From Gammaproteobacteria bacterium (GTDB taxonomy: Bacteria; Pseudomonadota; Gammaproteobacteria; Xanthomonadales; Rhodanobacteraceae): a stretch of DNA of 32,000 nucleotides. The stretch spans positions 1 through 32,000 of the forward strand of contig JAJPJT010000005.1 in assembly GCA_021324095.1 (NCBI GenBank), in the 5' to 3' direction. Below, piece after piece: positions 1 through 25,460 of this stretch. The notes under the pieces were generated by a model. The model ran no database searches. It saw only the letters and a list, made by a program, of their open reading frames with translations, and had not been told where the DNA came from. The first letter of the stretch is position 1. Each line of letters starts with the position of its first letter. The position numbers were made by a program, and so were the translations under genes.

Positions 1-2546
1 TCTTCCTTCAGGTATTTCTCGACCTGCTGGTCGATCGCGGTGTTCATGAACATCGCGAGGATCATCGGCGCGGGGCCGTTGATGGTCATCGACACGCTGG
101 TCTTGGGGTTGCACAGGTCGAAGCCGGAATACAGCTTCTTCATGTCGTCGAGCGTGGCGATGGACACGCCGGAGTTGCCGATCTTGCCGTAGATGTCCGG
201 GCGCGGCGCCGGGTCTTCGCCGTACAGCGTGACCGAATCGAACGCGGTGGATAGCCGCGATGCGGGTTGTCCGCGCGAGACGTAATGGAAGCGGCGGTTG
301 GTGCGCTCGGGCGTGCCCTCGCCCGCGAACATGCGGGTCGGGTCTTCGCCGGAGCGACGGTACGGGTACACGCCGCCGGTGTAGGGATACGCGCCCGGCA
401 GGTTTTCCAGCATCAGGTATTTGAGCTCCTCGCCCCAGTCGTTGGTGGTGGGCGGCGCGATCTTGGGCACCTTCTGGTGCGACAGGGTTTCCCAGTAGTT
501 CTGGACCTTGATGGCCTTGCCGCGGACGGTGTATTCGTTGAATTCGTTCTGCACCGCTTCGCGGGAAGCGGGCCAGGCGCGAAGCAGGTTGATGGCTTCG
601 GCGCTGAGTTCCTTGACGGCTTCGTTGTAGCGTTGGCGGAGGGTGAGCAGCGAGCGGTCGGGGTTGTCTCCCCTCTCCCCTCGGGAGAGGGGTTGGGGGT
701 GAGGGTTCGGGTCTTGCGCGGAACTGGAGTGAGCGGCTGACCTCGCTTCGCCCGTACCCTCACCCTCGGTCCCTCTCCCGGGGGGAGAGGGATGCAAAGC
801 TGCTTCGGCCGGAGAGGGATGCAAAGCTGCGGCATCGTAGAGATCCAGCGCGCGGGGCAACGCTGGATCGCCGAGTTCCTTCAACGACTCGTAGTAATGC
901 TGCGCCTTGGACGCGGCTTCGGCCATGCGCCTCGCATCGGCGTTGATGCCCCTGCCCTGCTCGGCGATTTCGGCGAGGTAGCGGACGCGCTTGCCGGGGA
1001 TCAGCACGGTGGCGCGGGGTTCCTTGAGGGTAGTGTCGACTTGCGGGTTGAAGTCGCAGCGGGGGCTTTCTCCCCTCTCCCCTTGGGAGAGGGGTTGGGG
1101 GTGAGGGTTCGGGGCTTGCGCGATGTTGGGGTGAGCGGCTGACCTCGCTTCGGTCGCACCCTCACCCTCGGTCCCTCTCCCGGAGGGAGAGGGATGCAAA
1201 GCTGCGGCCCCGGCGGCGTGCTCTGCGAGTCCCGAGTCCCGAGCCCCGAGTCCCGGGATCTTCTCCCGCAACAACCGGCACAGGTTCACGAACATCCAGG
1301 TGACGCCGGGGTCGTTGAACTGGCTGGCGATGGTGGGGTACACCGGTACGTCTTCGTCCGGGGTCTGGAACGCGGTGTGGTTGCGTTTCCACTGCTTGCG
1401 GACATCCCTCAAAGCATCCTCGGCGCCGCGACGGTCGTACTTGTTGAGCACGACGAGTTGCGCGAAATCCAGCATGTCGATCTTCTCGAGCTGGCTGGCT
1501 GCGCCGTAGTCGCTGGTCATCACGTACACGGGGAAATCGACGAGGTCGACGATCTCGGTATCGGCCTGGCCGATGCCCGCGGTCTCGACGATCACCAAAT
1601 CGAACGGCAGCGATTTCAGGAACGCGATGCAGTCGTGCAACACGGTGTTGGTGGCCGCGTGCGCGCGGCGCGTGGCCATCGAGCGCATGAACACGCGATG
1701 CGAACGCAGCGCGTTCATGCGGATGCGGTCGCCCAGCAGCGCACCGCCGCCCTTGCGCCGGGTCGGATCGACCGCCAGCACCGCGATCCGCATTTCGGGG
1801 AAGGAATGCAGGAAACGCAACAGCAGTTCGTCGACGACGGAAGATTTGCCCGCGCCGCCGGTGCCGGTGATGCCGATCACTGGCGTGATCGGCGGGGGCT
1901 GGGGGCTGGGGGCTGGGGACTGCGAAGCCCGCGTCCATTGTTTGCGCAGCAGCTTCAATTCGCTTTCGGAGAATTCGCCATCTTCAATGGCCGAGAGCAT
2001 CCGCCCGATACTTATTTCGTCGTCGATATGCGCGGCGCTGGCGAGCTTCGCCGTGTCCCCAGTCCCCCGTCCCCAGCCCCGCGCGCGAGCCGCGCTCGCG
2101 CGCTGCACCACATCCTCGATCATGTGCACCAGCCCCATGTGCATCCCGTCGTTGGGGTGGTAGATGCGTTCGACGCCGTAGTCTTCGAGTTCCTTGATTT
2201 CCTCGGGCGTGATGGTGCCGCCGCCGCCGCCGAACACGCGGATGTGGCCCGCGCCGCGGTCGCGCAGCATGTCGACCATGTATTTGAAGTATTCGACGTG
2301 GCCGCCCTGGTAGCTGGACAGCGCGATGGCGTCGGCGTCTTCCTGCAGCGCGGCGCGCACCACGTCCTCAACCGAGCGGTTGTGGCCGAGGTGGATCACC
2401 TCCGCACCCTGCGACTGGATGATGCGCCGCATGATGTTGATGGCGGCATCATGCCCGTCGAACAGGCTCGCGGCGGTGACGAAGCGAAGCGGCGTGGTGT
2501 CGGTGCGCGGCTCGGTGGCTGGAATCTCGATGGCAGTCTGGCTCAT
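1..2546 (-). CDS. icmF: Fused isobutyryl-CoA mutase IcmF (B12-binding domain, MeaB-like GTPase, beginning of mutase barrel); 3' end runs off the window
   Basis: Absent from the ORF track because no stop lies in the window. My minus-strand translation from the ATG at 2546 reads MSQTAIEIPATEPRTDTTPLRFVTAASLFDGHDAAINIMRRIIQSQGAEVIHLGHNRSVEDVV...SSYQGGHVEYFKYMVDMLRDRGAGHIRVFGGGGGTI. It continues with the P-loop GITGTGGAGKSS (Lys codon 1845-1847), FDLVIVETAGIGQ, and near position 1 TRMFAGEGTPERTNRRFHY...SMTINGPAPMILAMFMNTAIDQQ. The frame (coordinate mod 3 = 2) agrees at 2546, 1847, 1295 and 836, and I saw no stop. Confidence 0.85.
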   Translation of the reverse strand, partial: MSQTAIEIPATEPRTDTTPLRFVTAASLFDGHDAAINIMRRIIQSQGAEVIHLGHNRSVEDVVRAALQEDADAIALSSYQGGHVEYFKYMVDMLRDRGAGHIRVFGGGGGTITPEEIKELEDYGVERIYHPNDGMHMGLVHMIEDVVQRASAARARGWGRGTGDTAKLASAAHIDDEISIGRMLSAIEDGEFSESELKLLRKQWTRASQSPAPSPQPPPITPVIGITGTGGAGKSSVVDELLLRFLHSFPEMRIAVLAVDPTRRKGGGALLGDRIRMNALRSHRVFMRSMATRRAHAATNTVLHDCIAFLKSLPFDLVIVETAGIGQADTEIVDLVDFPVYVMTSDYGAASQLEKIDMLDFAQLVVLNKYDRRGAEDALRDVRKQWKRNHTAFQTPDEDVPVYPTIASQFNDPGVTWMFVNLCRLLREKIPGLGARDSGLAEHAAGAAALHPSPSGRGTEGEGATEARSAAHPNIAQAPNPHPQPLSQGERGESPRCDFNPQVDTTLKEPRATVLIPGKRVRYLAEIAEQGRGINADARRMAEAASKAQHYYESLKELGDPALPRALDLYDAAALHPSPAEAALHPSPPGRGTEGEGTGEARSAAHSSSAQDPNPHPQPLSRGERGDNPDRSLLTLRQRYNEAVKELSAEAINLLRAWPASREAVQNEFNEYTVRGKAIKVQNYWETLSHQKVPKIAPPTTNDWGEELKYLMLENLPGAYPYTGGVYPYRRSGEDPTRMFAGEGTPERTNRRFHYVSRGQPASRLSTAFDSVTLYGEDPAPRPDIYGKIGNSGVSIATLDDMKKLYSGFDLCNPKTSVSMTINGPAPMILAMFMNTAIDQQVEKYLKE
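667..830. repeat. Compound palindromic REP/MITE-like element, copy 1 (137 nt, 667-803) plus a 27-nt partial re-duplication (804-830), inside icmF
   Basis: Reads tctcccctctcccc-tcg-ggagagggg ttgg GGGTGAGGGTTCGG ... ACCCTCACCCTCGG t ccctctccc-gggg-ggagaggg atgcaaagctgc. It has two terminal hairpins and an internal inverted pair, and is near-identical to 1069-1205. Confidence 0.85.
1069..1205. repeat. Compound palindromic REP/MITE-like element, copy 2 (137 nt), inside icmF
   Basis: Same length, orientation and architecture as 667-803. The differences lie mostly in the central ~20 nt. Confidence 0.85.
1227..1254. repeat. Heptanucleotide tandem array (GAGTCCC x4, one variant GAGCCCC) inside icmF
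   Basis: Direct reading: gagtccc gagtccc gagcccc gagtccc. Confidence 0.9.
1894..1921. repeat. Heptanucleotide tandem array (GGGGGCT x3 + GGGGACT) inside icmF
   Basis: Direct reading. It encodes SPAPSPQPPP just upstream of the P-loop. Confidence 0.9.
2055..2082. repeat. Heptanucleotide tandem array (GTCCCCA-type, ~3.7 units) inside icmF, inverted relative to 1894-1921
   Basis: Reads gtcccca gtccccc gtcccca gccccgc, the reverse complement of the 1894-1921 unit family. Confidence 0.85.
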
Positions 2547-3128: not shown

Positions 3129-3181
3129 CATGCAGGTGCGGAGCTCCGGCCGAATGCACAGGAATGCTGATCAACTCGCCT

Positions 3182-3215
3182 CGTCATGCCAGCAAAGGCC
3201 GGCATCCAGCTCTTG
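3182..3215. repeat. REP hairpin family 'cgtcatgccggcgaaggccggcatccagc', copy 1
   Basis: The sequence is cgtcatgccagcaaaggccggcatccagctcttg, with stem ATGCC(A/G)GC / GCCGGCAT. This is the source of MPAFAGMT-type spurious ORFs. Confidence 0.8.
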
Positions 3216-3378
3216 TCCAAGGCTTGCGCGCTTCGCGACGTATTTGGCTGCGCCAACACGTGCTGAATCAATCCCGACGTGATGTGAATGAACGAGCGGT
3301 GAAAATGCGGGTTTGCGGCGCCTCGTGGGTATGCTCGGATCGAGGCCGGGATTCGGCCGACCACGATGGAGGTGTCTC

Positions 3379-3744
3379 GTGCACACACGCAACCTTGCAT
3401 TGCTTGCCGCGCTCGCGATGGCAGGTGGAGCCGTCACGGCCTTCGCGCCGACAGCATCCGCGCAGGTGAGTCTCGACATCAGCGTTGGCAGACCGCCACC
3501 GCCACCACGTTTCGAACGTCCGCCGCCGCCGCGCCCGGGCTACGTCTGGGCGCCGGGCTACTGGAATTGGAACGGCGGAAGCTACGTATGGGTGCGCGGC
3601 AGTTGGCATCGCGACCGGCCGGGCTACATCTACTACGGCCCGCGCTGGGTGCACCGCGGCAATCGGTGGGTCTATCACCAGCCGTACTGGGGCCGTAACC
3701 CGCACTGGCGTGGGCGCCGTGACTACGACCGTCACGGACACTGA
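3379..3744 (+). CDS. Secreted YXWGXW/WXXGXW-repeat protein, tandem paralogue
   Basis: GTG at 3379 follows GGAGG (3369-3373). It reads VHTRNLALLAALAMAGGAVTAFAPTASAQ...PPPPP...GYVWAPGYWNWNGGSYVWVRGSW...DYDRHGH. It is in frame with track ORF 3313-3744. Confidence 0.8.
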   Translation: MHTRNLALLAALAMAGGAVTAFAPTASAQVSLDISVGRPPPPPRFERPPPPRPGYVWAPGYWNWNGGSYVWVRGSWHRDRPGYIYYGPRWVHRGNRWVYHQPYWGRNPHWRGRRDYDRHGH

Positions 3745-3809: not shown

Positions 3810-3861
3810 CACACGAGCACGGAGTCCCGGCATGTGCGCCGGGACGCTGACCAACACACCT

Positions 3862-3895
3862 CGTCATGCCGGCGAAGGCCGGCATCCAGCTCTTG
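3862..3895. repeat. REP hairpin family 'cgtcatgccggcgaaggccggcatccagc', copy 2
   Basis: cgtcatgccggcgaaggccggcatccagctcttg. Confidence 0.8.
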
Positions 3896-3983
3896 ACCAG
3901 GTTTGCGTGCTTCGCACGACGTATTTGACTGGGCCCCGGCCTGCGCCGGGCGACGGTTTTGCAATTCAGGCGGGGCGCGGCGC

Positions 3984-5255
3984 TCAATGCGATGCGCCAT
4001 GCAGGCAAATGCCGGCATCCAGTGACCGCGAAGCCGGCGTATGCACGTGTTCCTGCCGCAAGCCGTAGCCGAACAGGCGCGCGGGTCGGTGCCGGATCGC
4101 GCGGAAGCGGAACAGGAAGCGCAGCAGCGCCGGCACGCGTGGCGCCTCGCCGGAAGTTTCCAGCACGCGCGAAATCAGGCGTTTCTGGATCGCGATCTGG
4201 ATGCGCTGCACGACCTTCACCGGCCACTCGCGCCGTCGCTGGATTGCGGCGAGCACCGATTCGTCGATCGCGCGGCCGTCACGCAACGGCTGTGCCAACG
4301 CATTCGCGGCGGCCACCGCGTCCTGGATTGCGAGATTGATGCCGACGCCGCCGATCGGCGACATCGCGTGCGCGGCATCGCCGATCAGCAGCAACCCCGG
4401 CTTGTGCCAGCGCTCCAGCCGATCCACCTGCACGGAAAGCGTGCTGACCTTGTCCCACGACTCGATGGCGCCGCGCCGATCGGCGAGGAAAGGCGCGAGT
4501 TGCACCACCGTTTCCCGCAAGGCATCGATCGAGCGTGCGCGCAGCGCGGCGTCGCTGCCCTTCGGTACCAGAAATGCGATCTGCCAATAGTCGTCCCGGT
4601 TCAGCATCACCATCATGTGCCCGCGATCGACGATGCCGAAGGTGTCCTGCGGATCCGATTCGCTGCGCGGCATCCGGAACCACAGCACGTCCATGGGCGC
4701 GCCGTATTCCCGTGCCTTCAGGCCAGCGGCATCGCGCAACGTCGAATGGCGGCCGTCGCAGGCGACCACCAGATCCGCGCGCAATTCGTAATCGGCTTGC
4801 GGCGATTTCACGCGCACGCCGACCACGCGACCGCCCTCTTCGATCAATCCGGTCGCGGCGTGCTGCATGCGCAGGTCGAACGTCGACAATCTGCGCCCGG
4901 CGTCGGCCAGCATGTCCAGGAAATCCCACTGCGGTACCAGCGCCAGATAGTCGTAAGGCTTCAATCCGCGAAAATCGACGATCTGTTGCTCGCGCCCGGC
5001 GACGATGCCGGCGAGGTGATCGACCCGGCGTTGCGGCAGCTTGTCGAATCGATCACGCAGACCGATCTCGTCGAGGATCGCGAGGGTCGAAGGATGCACG
5101 GTGTCGCCGCGGAAATCGCGCAGGAAGTCGCCGTGTTTTTCCAGCACGGAGACCGGAACGCCGGCGCGCGCAAGCAGCAGTCCCAGCATCATTCCGGCGG
5201 GACCGCCGCCGACGATGCAGCAGCGGGAATGGTTCTGCGTCTGCGTGGCGGACAT
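3984..5255 (-). CDS. FAD-dependent monooxygenase/oxidoreductase (UbiH/PHBH-fold family)
   Basis: The dinucleotide-binding N-terminus is CCIVGGGPAGMMLGLLLARAGVPVSVLEKH, followed by ...DLVVACDGRHS...LLIGDAAHAMSPIGGVGINLAIQDA. ATG 5255 (MSATQ) has GGAG 7 nt upstream. The track start at 5267 is an alternative. Confidence 0.85.
   Translation of the reverse strand: MSATQTQNHSRCCIVGGGPAGMMLGLLLARAGVPVSVLEKHGDFLRDFRGDTVHPSTLAILDEIGLRDRFDKLPQRRVDHLAGIVAGREQQIVDFRGLKPYDYLALVPQWDFLDMLADAGRRLSTFDLRMQHAATGLIEEGGRVVGVRVKSPQADYELRADLVVACDGRHSTLRDAAGLKAREYGAPMDVLWFRMPRSESDPQDTFGIVDRGHMMVMLNRDDYWQIAFLVPKGSDAALRARSIDALRETVVQLAPFLADRRGAIESWDKVSTLSVQVDRLERWHKPGLLLIGDAAHAMSPIGGVGINLAIQDAVAAANALAQPLRDGRAIDESVLAAIQRRREWPVKVVQRIQIAIQKRLISRVLETSGEAPRVPALLRFLFRFRAIRHRPARLFGYGLRQEHVHTPASRSLDAGICLHGASH
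3994..4027. repeat. Degenerate third copy of the same REP, overlapping the 3' end of the monooxygenase CDS
   Basis: gcgccatgcaggcaaatgccggcatccagtgacc. Confidence 0.6.
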
Positions 5256-15744: not shown

Positions 15745-15778
15745 ATTTATGAATGCAACCGTGGGCAGGATGACCACG

Positions 15779-15900
15779 CCCCGGACAGCACATGGACGCG
15801 CGGCGACCCGGGGCCCATTGTCAGGTCAAAACGCCCCAGCCCCGGACGGCACATGGACGCGCGGTGATCCGGGGTCCATTGTCCGAACAACTGACTCCAC
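15779..15900. repeat. Two tandem 61-bp units with a ~45-bp conserved core
   Basis: ccccggacAgcacatggacgcgcggCgaCccggggCccattgtc compared with ccccggacGgcacatggacgcgcggTgaTccggggTccattgtc. Each core has a CCCCGG(A)/(T)CCGGGG stem. Confidence 0.85.
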
Positions 15901-17864: not shown

Positions 17865-18328
17865 TTCGGCAAGAGCAGTCATCGTTGACACGGATAAACA
17901 CGGATGAACACGGATACAGCACTGGCAGAAGCAGACCTGACGGAACGTGTGATTGGCGTCTTCTATGCCGTATACAACGAACTTGGGCATGGATTTCTGG
18001 AGAGTGTGTATGAAAACTCGCTTGCGCCCGCACTCCGCGAAGCCGGCATTGCCGTCGTGCAACAGGCACCTTTGCGCGTGGACTTTCGTGGACGTACCGT
18101 AGGCGAGTTCCGTGCAGACCTGCTCGTAGAAGATCGGTTGATCGTGGAGATCAAGTCCGTGTCACAGTTGGCGCCTGTCCACGAAGTTCAACTCGTCAAT
18201 TATCTGAAGGCAACTGGCATTCGCGTCGGGCTGTTGATGAACTTCGGTTTGCAGCCTCAATTCAAGCGCCGGATCTTCGGGACTGTTGCATCCCATCCGC
18301 TTTGATCCGCTTTTATCCGTGTCCAAAA

Positions 18329-23423: not shown

Positions 23424-23562
23424 TTCGGCAAAGAGCGAAAATCCTTTGACACGGATCAAAGCGGATGAACACGGACAGATACGGAGATGACTCCTGCTCC
23501 TGACAAGACGGCAACGGTTTTTGATCCGTTCTGATCCGCTCTGATCCGTGTCAAAAATGCTT
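23424..23562. mobile_element. Gene-less (internally deleted) derivative of the GxxExxY element
   Basis: The perfect 13-bp termini are TTTGACACGGATC / GATCCGTGTCAAA. The arms consist of CGGAT / ATCCG sub-repeats. It retains ATGAACACGGA (MNTD), the first codons of the GxxExxY gene, then stops after 12 codons. It shares the outer flanks ttcggcaaAGAGC and CAAAAATG. Confidence 0.65.
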
Positions 23563-25060: not shown

Positions 25061-25460
25061 GGCGCTTGCGACGGTCCGGGGAACTGTCGCGCCGAACGCG
25101 CGGGTGAGGCGGATGCCGAACGGGCAGCGCGCCAGGGATGGCTGCTTGCCTCAGGCTACGACCGCACTTGCGTCAAGCGAGCGCGAGGCAGGAGCCGAGC
25201 GGCTGCGCGCCATGGATGGCTGCTTGCATCAGTCCTTCCGCGCGCTTGCGACAGCCCTGGGGACTGTCGCGCCGAACGCGCGGGTGAGGCGGATGCCGAA
25301 CGGGCAGCGCGCCGGGGATGGCTGCTTGCCTCAGGCTACGACCGCGTTTGCGCGATGCGAAGAACCGCATCGCGCGCGTCCAGCAAGGATGAGCGCGGAG
25401 CCCGAACGGCTGCGCGCATCCGACGGCTGCTTGCTCGAACCGCCAAGGCGGTTACGCGCC
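25061..25460. repeat. 180-bp tandem repeat, two full units and a degenerate third
   Basis: 25061-25165 and 25241-25345 are ~95% identical with a period of exactly 180 bp. The sub-motif gcgcgcc-N4-ggatggctgcttgc recurs four times. Confidence 0.85.

Follow-up and report, generated by a model that had tools for sequence, protein, structure and literature searches.

Inverted TM/BoxC motif pairs inside the reading frame of icmF in Rhodanobacteraceae

Introduction

The TM motif is a GC-rich bacterial repeat with several names (TMECO, BoxC, PIT, HPG1/HPG2), which was described as an intrastrand-triplex motif by Holder et al. (2015, PMC4666352) and as the G-quadruplex-hairpin element HPG1/HPG2 by Kaplan et al. 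(2016, PMC5100583). It has three blocks separated by two loops, namely a C-rich one of 9–10 nucleotides (nt), a G-rich one complementary to it and another G-rich one that mirrors the first (CCCTCTCCC-loop-GGGAGAGGG-loop-GGGTGAGGG), and in vitro it forms a triplex or a G-quadruplex (PMC4666352, PMC5100583). E. coli K-12 carries 23 TMECO copies and the motif is present in more than 260 genomes (PMC4666352, PMC5100583); at five E. coli loci it occurs as an inverted pair, always combining type A and type B of loop 2 (PMC4666352). In published tests it acted neither as a promoter nor as a terminator, and a stable triplex was not found in vivo (PMC4666352). The motif is unlinked to known mobile elements, is associated with locally variable sequence, and was found exclusively between genes in both E. 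coli studies (PMC4666352, PMC5100583). Here we describe two units that by their sequence are inverted pairs of this motif and lie inside the reading frame of icmF, a gene for a B12-dependent enzyme, in a metagenome contig from the Rhodanobacteraceae (JAJPJT010000005.1, positions 1 to 32,000; this whole 32-kb stretch is called the window).

Palindromic repeats within reading frames are already known as a kind of phenomenon, with precedents in the Rickettsia palindromic elements (RPE) and in the in-frame insertions of ERIC, YPAL and Correia-107 (Ogata 2000 as reviewed by Delihas, PMC2229807, and in PMC10969869 from 2024). They are palindromic repeats of 100–170 bp that sit in a stop-free frame in conserved metabolic genes, their products are thought to be functional, and their transcripts fold into long stem-loops. 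Two other repeat classes are of relevance for the locus. The G-rich heptamer repeats of xanthomonads and Nostoc are of the GGGNATC type and 7–11% of them are intragenic in xanthomonads (Rehm et al. 2015, PMC4692102), and the REP/BIME palindromes are tagged by GTAG/CGTC and mobilised by RAYT transposases (PMC3733652).

Results and Discussion

The gene starts with an ATG at position 2546 and extends beyond the window edge at position 1. Its machine translation gave 848 codons with zero stops and is open through all repeats, which bears out what an earlier sequence-only reading of this DNA had claimed for both copies, and the two peptides quoted there were reproduced. Pfam matches in the window protein are B12-binding, MeaB and MM_CoA_mutase, the IcmF structure from Cupriavidus metallidurans (PDB 4xc6) matches it with E = 1e-211, and an identical full-length protein of 1343 residues (P0001) carries all four Pfam families. 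Judged by these matches the gene is icmF, which codes for a B12-binding domain, a MeaB-type GTPase and a mutase barrel on one polypeptide. Through the repeats the icmF frame and a second phase are open, and the third phase has a TGA in each copy (G*G), as had also been noted before; both units share their orientation and also their phase, one of the two that are free of stops.

A repeat search identified a 144-nt direct repeat in the same orientation and with 91% identity at 660–803 and 1062–1205. The near-identical palindromic copies reported earlier (667–803 and 1069–1205) are therefore genuine and slightly longer than proposed, the size of the unit being about 137–144 nt. In the protein the copy at 1062–1205 comes first and occupies what we call site 1, the copy at 660–803 occupying site 2 (Table 1). 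Both are internally palindromic, with arms of 41 nt at site 2 (671–711 and 751–791, 85% complementary) and of 39 nt at site 1 (1073–1111 and 1155–1193, 79% complementary), and terminal inverted repeats as used to recognise miniature inverted-repeat transposable elements (MITE) are present in both units. The 22-mer GGAGAGGGGTTGGGGGTGAGGG occurs exactly twice in the window, once per copy, and 0.00 times in 100 shuffles, and the two icmF copies are the only TM units in the 32 kb. An extra 27-nt partial duplication had been noticed at the copy at 667–803, and it is real, with 28-nt copies at 779–806, 806–833 and 1181–1208 of which the first two are spaced by 27 nt or nine codons. It is not peculiar to that copy, since an extension of the same type is found at site 1 of two orthologues (L124 and L125). 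The mRNA strand of each unit is predicted to fold into a long hairpin, the energies being −84.6 and −71.8 kcal/mol (z-scores −6.7 and −4.8). In the window sequence no U/T-run follows either hairpin, which rules out an intrinsic terminator, and an intein or intron could be discarded as well, as the inserts are too short and contain no Hint or other extra Pfam domain. A search of Rfam returned only sub-threshold miRNA-hairpin look-alikes and no matching RNA family.

All four arms in icmF have the design CCCTCTCCC(C)-loop-GGGAGAGGG(G)-loop-GGG(G)GTGAGGG; they satisfy the consensus CCCTC(T/G)CCC...GGGAGAGGG...GGGTGAGGG and fit the three-block design (class II purine triplex) and Table 1 of PMC4666352 as well as HPG1/HPG2 of PMC5100583. 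On the coding strand each unit reads as an arm with an ACCGA loop, a spacer of about 50 nt and an arm with a TTGG loop as reverse complement, and the coupling of an ACCGA-type to a TTGG-type arm is seen in every icmF copy. By this comparison each unit is an inverted pair of the known TM motif. The units share with TM/TMECO the block structure, a near-identical sequence, the inverted pairs with differing loop 2, the occurrence in many phyla and the local hypervariability. They differ from the E. coli motif in the sequence of loop 2 (ACCGA/TTGG in icmF, TTA/CCG in E. coli), in the spacer of about 50 nt between the arms and in a TTGCAT extension before the left arm, and above all they are located in frame inside a conserved enzyme gene and are retained across genera. 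Thus all structural features of TM/BoxC are found in the icmF units and its reported intergenic-only location is not; we treat that location as a reported property of the motif and not as part of its structural definition. A 22-mer scan with one genome per species returned at least 120 stretches with single motifs or inverted pairs, which belong to Planctomycetota, Chloroflexota, Cyanobacteria, Proteobacteria, Acidobacteriota and others.

The sequence-only reading had called this a REP/MITE architecture. As a description of an intergenic-type palindromic repeat this is right, but the units do not look like a classical REP or MITE. Like REP/BIME they are short GC-rich palindromes of the extragenic type and such palindromes are often arranged as inverted pairs; unlike REP/BIME they possess a third block beyond the hairpin and have no GTAG or CGTC head at their arm ends, and for the latter reason membership in the REP/RAYT system was rejected. 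No RAYT gene turned up, the window not having been scanned for one. Their membership among the MITE is ambiguous: both units have inverted repeats, the signs of a target duplication are equivocal, and dispersed copies were not demonstrated in the window, in 77 kb of DNA from the family or in the metagenome 22-mer scan. No transposase was found, and a candidate for an autonomous relative is a nuclease cassette from Rhodanobacter sp. BL-MT-08 that is described below.

In their behaviour the units resemble RPE, as they are in-frame palindromic repeats in a conserved gene with flanks under purifying selection. With RPE, ERIC, YPAL and Correia-107 they also have in common the size, the stop-free frame, the metabolic host gene and the long stem-loops. 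RPE belong to an unrelated sequence family and host lineage and exist in many dispersed copies per genome, whereas TM pairs are demonstrated here only inside icmF, and RPE peptides are conserved as peptides, whereas conservation of the icmF units is at the nucleotide level and in the arms.

The alignment with 4xc6 covers residues 5–426 and 646–845 of the window protein and leaves a linker of 220 residues, compared to 89 residues in the structure. Both inserts are placed in this linker, between the G-domain, which reaches to residue 426, and the barrel, which starts at residue 646, and they are missing from the IcmF of C. metallidurans as well as from part of the orthologues. All of the closest 120 homologues are IcmFs of the Xanthomonadales type, with 1166–1348 residues when complete, and the alignment of their linkers shows two hypervariable sites flanked by well-conserved blocks, with site 1 coming after ...NLCRLLREK and site 2 located between ...LDLYxxxx and DRSLLxLRQRYN. 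Among the 86 Xanthomonadales orthologues with recognisable anchors, site 1 is occupied by the TM family in 12, by a second hairpin family (EPSPSRGGQGGDG...) in 15 and by G-rich heptamer arrays in 18, while the TM family is present at site 2 in 30 and a third family (LPPLAGEGA...) in 7. At least four different repeat families occupy the two sites, the lengths of which range from 5 to 91 and from 15 to 118 residues, respectively. One orthologue (P0033, locus L126) is insert-free at site 1 (REK-ELHCDF) and has an unrelated sequence at site 2, and another one (P0005, locus L124) carries a TM element at site 1 and none at site 2.

In all carriers checked at the DNA or alignment level the site-2 element begins exactly four residues past LDLY. 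At the DNA level the element of Rhodanobacter fulvus Jip2 and Fulvimonas soli begins at the same codon and has the same TTGCAT-CCCTCTCCC left end as in the window, and in the protein alignment orthologues named by their sources as Frateuria, Dyella and Metallibacterium carry the element at the same place. Compared with IcmF at large the units are therefore inserted sequence, and within a clade they are a shared, long-lived feature, both loops accepting several repeat families. The earlier description of the units as insertions is supported, with the addition that they are not private to this genome, many Rhodanobacteraceae orthologues having the element at the same sites. The paralogous identity within the window (91%) is about the same as the orthologous identity between genomes (88–90%), and spacer alleles and the 27-nt extension are found at different sites in different genomes. 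Together this indicates copying or gene conversion between the two sites and points to two site copies that exchange sequence or to one being derived from the other.

Several carriers show additional rearrangements. At site 1 of L123 (P0003; ~1125+1300) a palindromic segment of about 96 nt (GGCGATCTGCCAGTGGCAGATCGC...) is nested in the TM unit and splits its left hairpin, and in the right arms of L121 and L125 one arm has its loop 2 replaced by a small hairpin (GTCGCGAAGCGAC) that encodes PHPSLRDTLS. The spacer 22-mer GTGAGCGGCTGACCTCGCTTCG has only two metagenome contig matches, the icmF orthologue L121 and the unrelated L122, where it is present once without surrounding TM arms (Table 1). 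The spacer of the icmF units may itself stem from another small repeat. At the protein level, the 46-residue insert peptide gave no match in a set of 5.8 billion proteins, where a single candidate had index words in common with it, a result that has no bearing on how common the peptide is.

For a structural view we used AlphaFold2 with the partial protein of 848 residues and a 40-sequence alignment; the model is weak overall, with a mean predicted local distance difference test score (pLDDT) of 50.6, and only its relative confidence pattern was used. Residues 434–494 and 580–629 are the stretches of lowest confidence (pLDDT of about 30), are predicted entirely as coil and fall between the predicted helices 413–429, 518–556 and 631–646. 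This is consistent with the inserts being exposed loops, as they map to linker loops predicted as coil.

Pairwise codon alignments of the window gene with seven orthologous loci gave ratios of nonsynonymous to synonymous substitutions (dN/dS, ω) of 0.09–0.27 for the enzyme domains, and compared to the closest orthologue the identity at codon positions 1, 2 and 3 is 0.95, 0.98 and 0.81. In the 40-sequence alignment the columns of the catalytic domains are invariant. By these measures the enzyme domains are under ordinary purifying selection. The proposal of a cryptically inactivated gene, one of three offered in the sequence-only reading, does not agree with such values in the flanking domains nor with the open frame. 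The inserts behave differently, with ω between 0.83 and 1.0 in the three comparisons in which a family-A element could be aligned (L121, L127 and L128) and identities at codon positions 1, 2 and 3 of 0.85, 0.88 and 0.86 (L121) or 0.81, 0.76 and 0.81 (R. fulvus). As all three codon positions are equally conserved, the insert peptides do not appear to be under selection. The arms of site 2 in the window and in R. fulvus differ by only 3 mismatches in 84 nt, all of them at three hairpin-loop positions, and 27 of the 28 third codon positions in the arms are identical, compared to a third-position identity of 0.68 in the domains (binomial P ~3e-4). With arms that are nearly invariant and spacers and loops that drift, the nucleotide sequence of the palindrome arms is what is maintained. 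We infer that the arms are conserved as DNA, be it through selection for some property of the nucleic acid or through homogenisation.

In our opinion these data are probably best explained by inverted TM-motif pairs in two permissive linker loops of IcmF that are co-translated as tolerated, repeat-encoded linkers, which is also the best-fitting of the three earlier proposals. The TM pairs would have entered the two loops in a stop-free phase and would be transcribed and translated together with icmF. The resulting surface loops would be rich in Pro, Gly, Ser and Glu, probably disordered, and tolerated by the enzyme. They might persist by being harmless to the protein while something acting on the nucleic acid keeps the arms intact. 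The site-2 copy would be old, given its common position in Rhodanobacter, Fulvimonas and the orthologues named Frateuria, Dyella and Metallibacterium, and the site-1 copy would have come later and be confined mainly to a closer subclade. The linker loops may thus act as a sink in which in-frame, stop-free insertions of several repeat families survive and frame-breaking ones are removed.

Some observations fit this explanation less well. All TM motifs in about 77 kb of Rhodanobacteraceae DNA fall inside icmF, which is odd for a dispersed repeat, and the spacer-specific 22-mer has just the two metagenome matches mentioned above. At site 1 the element has TTGCAT on its left and (T/C)(C/G)GCAT on its right, the empty site of L126 reading GAGTTGCAT|TGCGAT, and at site 2 no target duplicate was seen, TTGCAT preceding the element there too. 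Translation through hairpins of −72 to −85 kcal/mol is assumed, the fact that the arms hardly vary between genera might also reflect repeated and recent insertions into a sequence-specific target, and with a poor structural model the proposed disorder of the surface loops would derive mainly from the hypervariability and the 4xc6 alignment.

The possibility that a mobile TM-pair element inserted independently and recently at a preferred target in the linker and was not inherited is unlikely, although it would account for arms that look close to the consensus everywhere. The arms are almost identical between genera with a synonymous dS of about 0.55, at least four repeat families share the two sites, and the TTGCAT...GCAT arrangement at site 1 looks like a duplication and is next to a TTGCAT that is native to the empty site in L126. 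That site-specific insertion is possible for this class of motif is moreover shown by two phyla in which TM-flanked DUF559 cassettes share one position of the N6_Mtase profile (235 of 311; see below). However, the left junction at site 2 is in identical register in all carriers examined, presence of the element broadly tracks relatedness, no TM copies were found outside icmF in the 77 kb of family DNA, and a tblastn search that included the window found no transposase or nuclease close by.

Slightly less likely is a function of the RNA or DNA itself, in which the hairpins or the triplex- or G-quadruplex-capable arms would act in the icmF transcript or gene and the peptides would be a by-product. 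They might cause pausing of the ribosome or RNA polymerase between domains and so aid co-translational folding, provide RNase III-type cleavage sites or tune expression. The conservation of the arms at all codon positions with drifting spacers and hairpin loops, the very stable folds of the mRNA strand, the position of both units exactly at domain boundaries and the four G-tracts per arm, which fit the published G-quadruplex/hairpin switch (PMC5100583), would all agree with such a role. Yet many orthologues have no elements or unrelated repeats at the same sites, so that none is required for IcmF; homogenisation among repeat copies explains the conserved arms equally well, no U-run follows the hairpins, and the published tests of the motif detected neither promoter or terminator activity nor a stable triplex in vivo (PMC4666352).

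It is improbable that the Pro/Gly-rich segments have been exapted as useful flexible tethers, by which the spacing of the G-protein chaperone and the mutase barrel or their mobility would be set, even if their inter-domain placement and the persistence of site-2 elements across several genera would suit this, because the inserts have an ω of about 1 without codon periodicity, vary freely in length and content (5–91 and 15–118 residues) and are dispensable in orthologues of 82–83% identity (P0033). A decaying gene or a mis-assembled contig, which might be suspected from the metagenomic source (a 75-kb JGI contig for P0001) and from a protein about 250 residues longer than characterised IcmF, can practically be dismissed in view of 848 codons free of stops and frameshifts, domain dN/dS values of 0.09–0.27 with invariant catalytic-domain columns in the 40-sequence alignment, and the same elements at the same sites in independent NCBI, ENA and JGI assemblies including the isolate Rhodanobacter fulvus Jip2.

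In order to see TM motifs in other reading frames we surveyed 126 TM matches sampled from other phyla, with Pfam run on the 20 longest. In 39 of them a stop-free frame spanned the motif and extended for 60 codons or more to either side, and at least nine matches outside icmF are in frame within genes supported by Pfam. The motif interrupts or separates domains in HisF (L031), the urease alpha subunit (L070), an ABC ATPase (L048), a GH38 mannosidase (L060), an MmeI-type enzyme (L056), a PSD1/LamG protein (L095), two HsdM methylases and one methionyl-tRNA synthetase. Its occurrence in genes of other phyla makes this a general phenomenon and not a peculiarity of icmF. In the first six of these proteins single motifs often lie inside the domain envelope, with LPSPSGRGVGGEG or PLTPNPSP..GEG as typical peptides.

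The HsdM genes, from Akkermansiaceae and Bryobacteraceae, contain a DUF559 open reading frame (ORF) that is flanked by inverted TM motifs and is in frame, at position 235 of 311 of the N6_Mtase profile, and a similar in-frame TM-DUF559-TM cassette is located inside the betaproteobacterial methionyl-tRNA synthetase. Among the at least 120 TM loci listed, seven have a DUF559 ORF, in six cases with a TM motif within about 100 nt of it. When DUF559 loci were picked regardless of TM, four of four had a TM-like motif within about 150 nt, and TM-encoded peptides are present at the ends of 19 out of 120 DUF559 homologues. The product of ycjD in E. coli K-12 is a DUF559-domain protein according to RefSeq, and a TMECO motif is found 168 nt downstream of this gene (in combination with Table 1 of PMC4666352). 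TM-flanked DUF559 ORFs span Proteobacteria, Planctomycetota, Bacteroidota, Verrucomicrobiota, Acidobacteriota and Cyanobacteria, and in Rhodanobacter sp. BL-MT-08 (L130) the arrangement is TM with an ACTGA loop, DUF559, and an inverted TM' with a CTGG loop, where the arm order is that of the icmF units and the loop types are similar to theirs. We found no paper in which DUF559 is linked to TM.

In the classification of PD-(D/E)XK enzymes DUF559 falls into one group with Vsr (PMC3424549) and with a Vsr-fold homing endonuclease (I-Bth0305I, PMC3239194). The TM-DUF559-TM arrangement is like homing cassettes or inteins in that it places a short nuclease ORF in frame within a host gene, and does so at one conserved position in phyla that are not related. 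It is unlike inteins or introns as a Hint or intron signature is lacking and the cassette apparently stays in the protein, and the icmF units differ from homing endonuclease cassettes in that they carry no nuclease. These findings suggest that inverted TM pairs including the icmF units could be cargo-less derivatives of a nuclease cassette. As a tentative proposal, which we regard as possible without expecting it to hold, TM/BoxC would represent the terminal repeats of a mobile DUF559 cassette (Vsr-fold, PD-(D/E)XK) with site-specific, in-frame and homing-like insertion into conserved genes without splicing, of which the icmF and E. coli BoxC pairs would be cargo-less forms. Comparing the icmF spacer by eye with the inner ends of the Rhodanobacter cassette gave only short GC-rich matches, and we therefore make no claim of a descent of the spacer from this cassette.

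A comparable arrangement may be present in the window itself. Inverted repeats composed of ACACGGAT-like units enclose a gene of the GxxExxY family (TIGR04256, E = 3e-39), which is also a PD-(D/E)XK family, and 5.5 kb away the same inverted ends recur in a miniature of 111 nt, with only 49 nt between them. The two have the appearance of a cassette with a nuclease-type gene and of a derivative that has lost this cargo, and would be an independent parallel to the DUF559 idea.

The icmF gene harbours further in-frame repeats, namely three G-rich heptamer arrays (Table 1), one of which immediately precedes the site-1 TM pair in the protein. The other two form an inverted repeat, 88% complementary, around about 45 residues of the linker between the B12 domain and the G-domain. 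Related arrays with the peptides GIGSGESGI and GTGNGERGL are found at site 1 of Rhodanobacter and Fulvimonas orthologues. Period, number of units (about four) and the four G-tracts are as in the heptamer class of PMC4692102, whereas the units GGGACTC, GGGGGCT and GGGGACT differ from its GGGNATC type, and three arrays in one gene with two of them as an inverted pair are unusual for these repeats. Beyond the window, the variable C-terminal region of IcmF (P0001 residues ~1255–1290) contains two copies of a repeat-type peptide, SVRPERSSxxxSxVEGQ, which recurs at site 2 of P0007, P0008 and L121, and some Lysobacteraceae-type orthologues (P0089–P0091) have a GRGxEGEG peptide in this region. It would be a fourth permissive site. 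The remaining repeats of the window, including two paralogous small ORFs with signal-peptide-like starts, are listed in Table 1.

Table 1: Positions of the repeat elements and related features. Positions refer to the window unless a locus or accession is given.
Feature	Position	Strand	Remarks
icmF, 5' 848 codons	1..2546	−	B12 domain, MeaB-type G-domain, linker, start of mutase barrel
TM pair, site 1	1062–1205		residues ~447–493, directly after last G-domain helix
Site-1 TM arm	1072–1106	+	loop 2 TTGG
Site-1 inverted TM arm	1160–1193	−	loop 2 ACCGA on coding strand
TM pair, site 2	660–803		residues ~581–628, directly before conserved DRSLLxLRQRYN helix
Site-2 TM arm	670–704	+
Site-2 TM arm	758–791	−
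27-nt (9-codon) in-frame partial duplication	804–833		of the TTGCAT-CCCTCTCC end of the element; peptide LHPSPAEAA; similar extension at site 1 of L124 and L125
Heptamer array CGAGTCC x4.3	1226–1255		coding strand GGGACTC, four G-tracts; in frame, peptide GLGARDSGL
Heptamer array GGGGGCT x4.1	1894–1922		in frame, B12-to-G-domain linker, peptide SPAPSPQPP
Heptamer array GTCCCCA x3.7	2055–2080		in frame, B12-to-G-domain linker, peptide GWGRGTGD
DUF559 locus with TM	L038:2819–3262
DUF559 locus with TM	L115:5514–6052
DUF559 locus with TM	L001:2110–2650
DUF559 locus with TM	L130:3917–4378		Rhodanobacter sp. BL-MT-08
DUF559 loci with TM (L131–L133)
DUF559 locus with TM	NC_000913 1351204–1351760		E. 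coli (L129)
Spacer 22-mer GTGAGCGGCTGACCTCGCTTCG	L122:4037–4058		once, without surrounding TM arms
GxxExxY-family gene	17904–18305		inverted-repeat frame 17885–18323
Miniature with ends of GxxExxY cassette	23445–23555		111 nt
Direct repeat	25062–25434		180-nt period, 92%, nested 33–53-nt units
Tandem 61-mer	15763–15884		80%
Paralogous small ORFs	2656–2955 vs 3354–3653		signal-peptide-like starts, 77% over 300 nt
39–65-nt repeat	3155–3219 vs 3835–3899 vs 3984–4022		downstream of the paralogous small ORFs

Conclusion

In summary, the icmF units are a known motif in an undescribed setting, and in the literature searched we found no description of an in-frame TM family, of its retention across genera or of a conservation confined to the nucleotide level. 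TM/BoxC, which has so far been viewed as an intergenic structural oddity tied to genome instability, also resides in the reading frames of conserved enzymes, and in icmF it has persisted across genera with the nucleic-acid arms alone being conserved. The link to DUF559 is the lead most worth following; if true, it would provide an origin and a mobilising enzyme for a repeat family that has been an orphan for 30 years and would explain the near-identity of the TM motif across phyla. For the enzyme, about 250 of the 1343 residues of IcmF appear to be repeat-derived and should not be taken for lineage-specific 'domains'. The IcmF orthologues with zero, one and two inserts represent a natural experiment on the effects of hairpins, triplexes and G-quadruplexes on translation and folding of a multidomain B12 enzyme, which also addresses how much foreign linker the coupling of chaperone and mutase tolerates.

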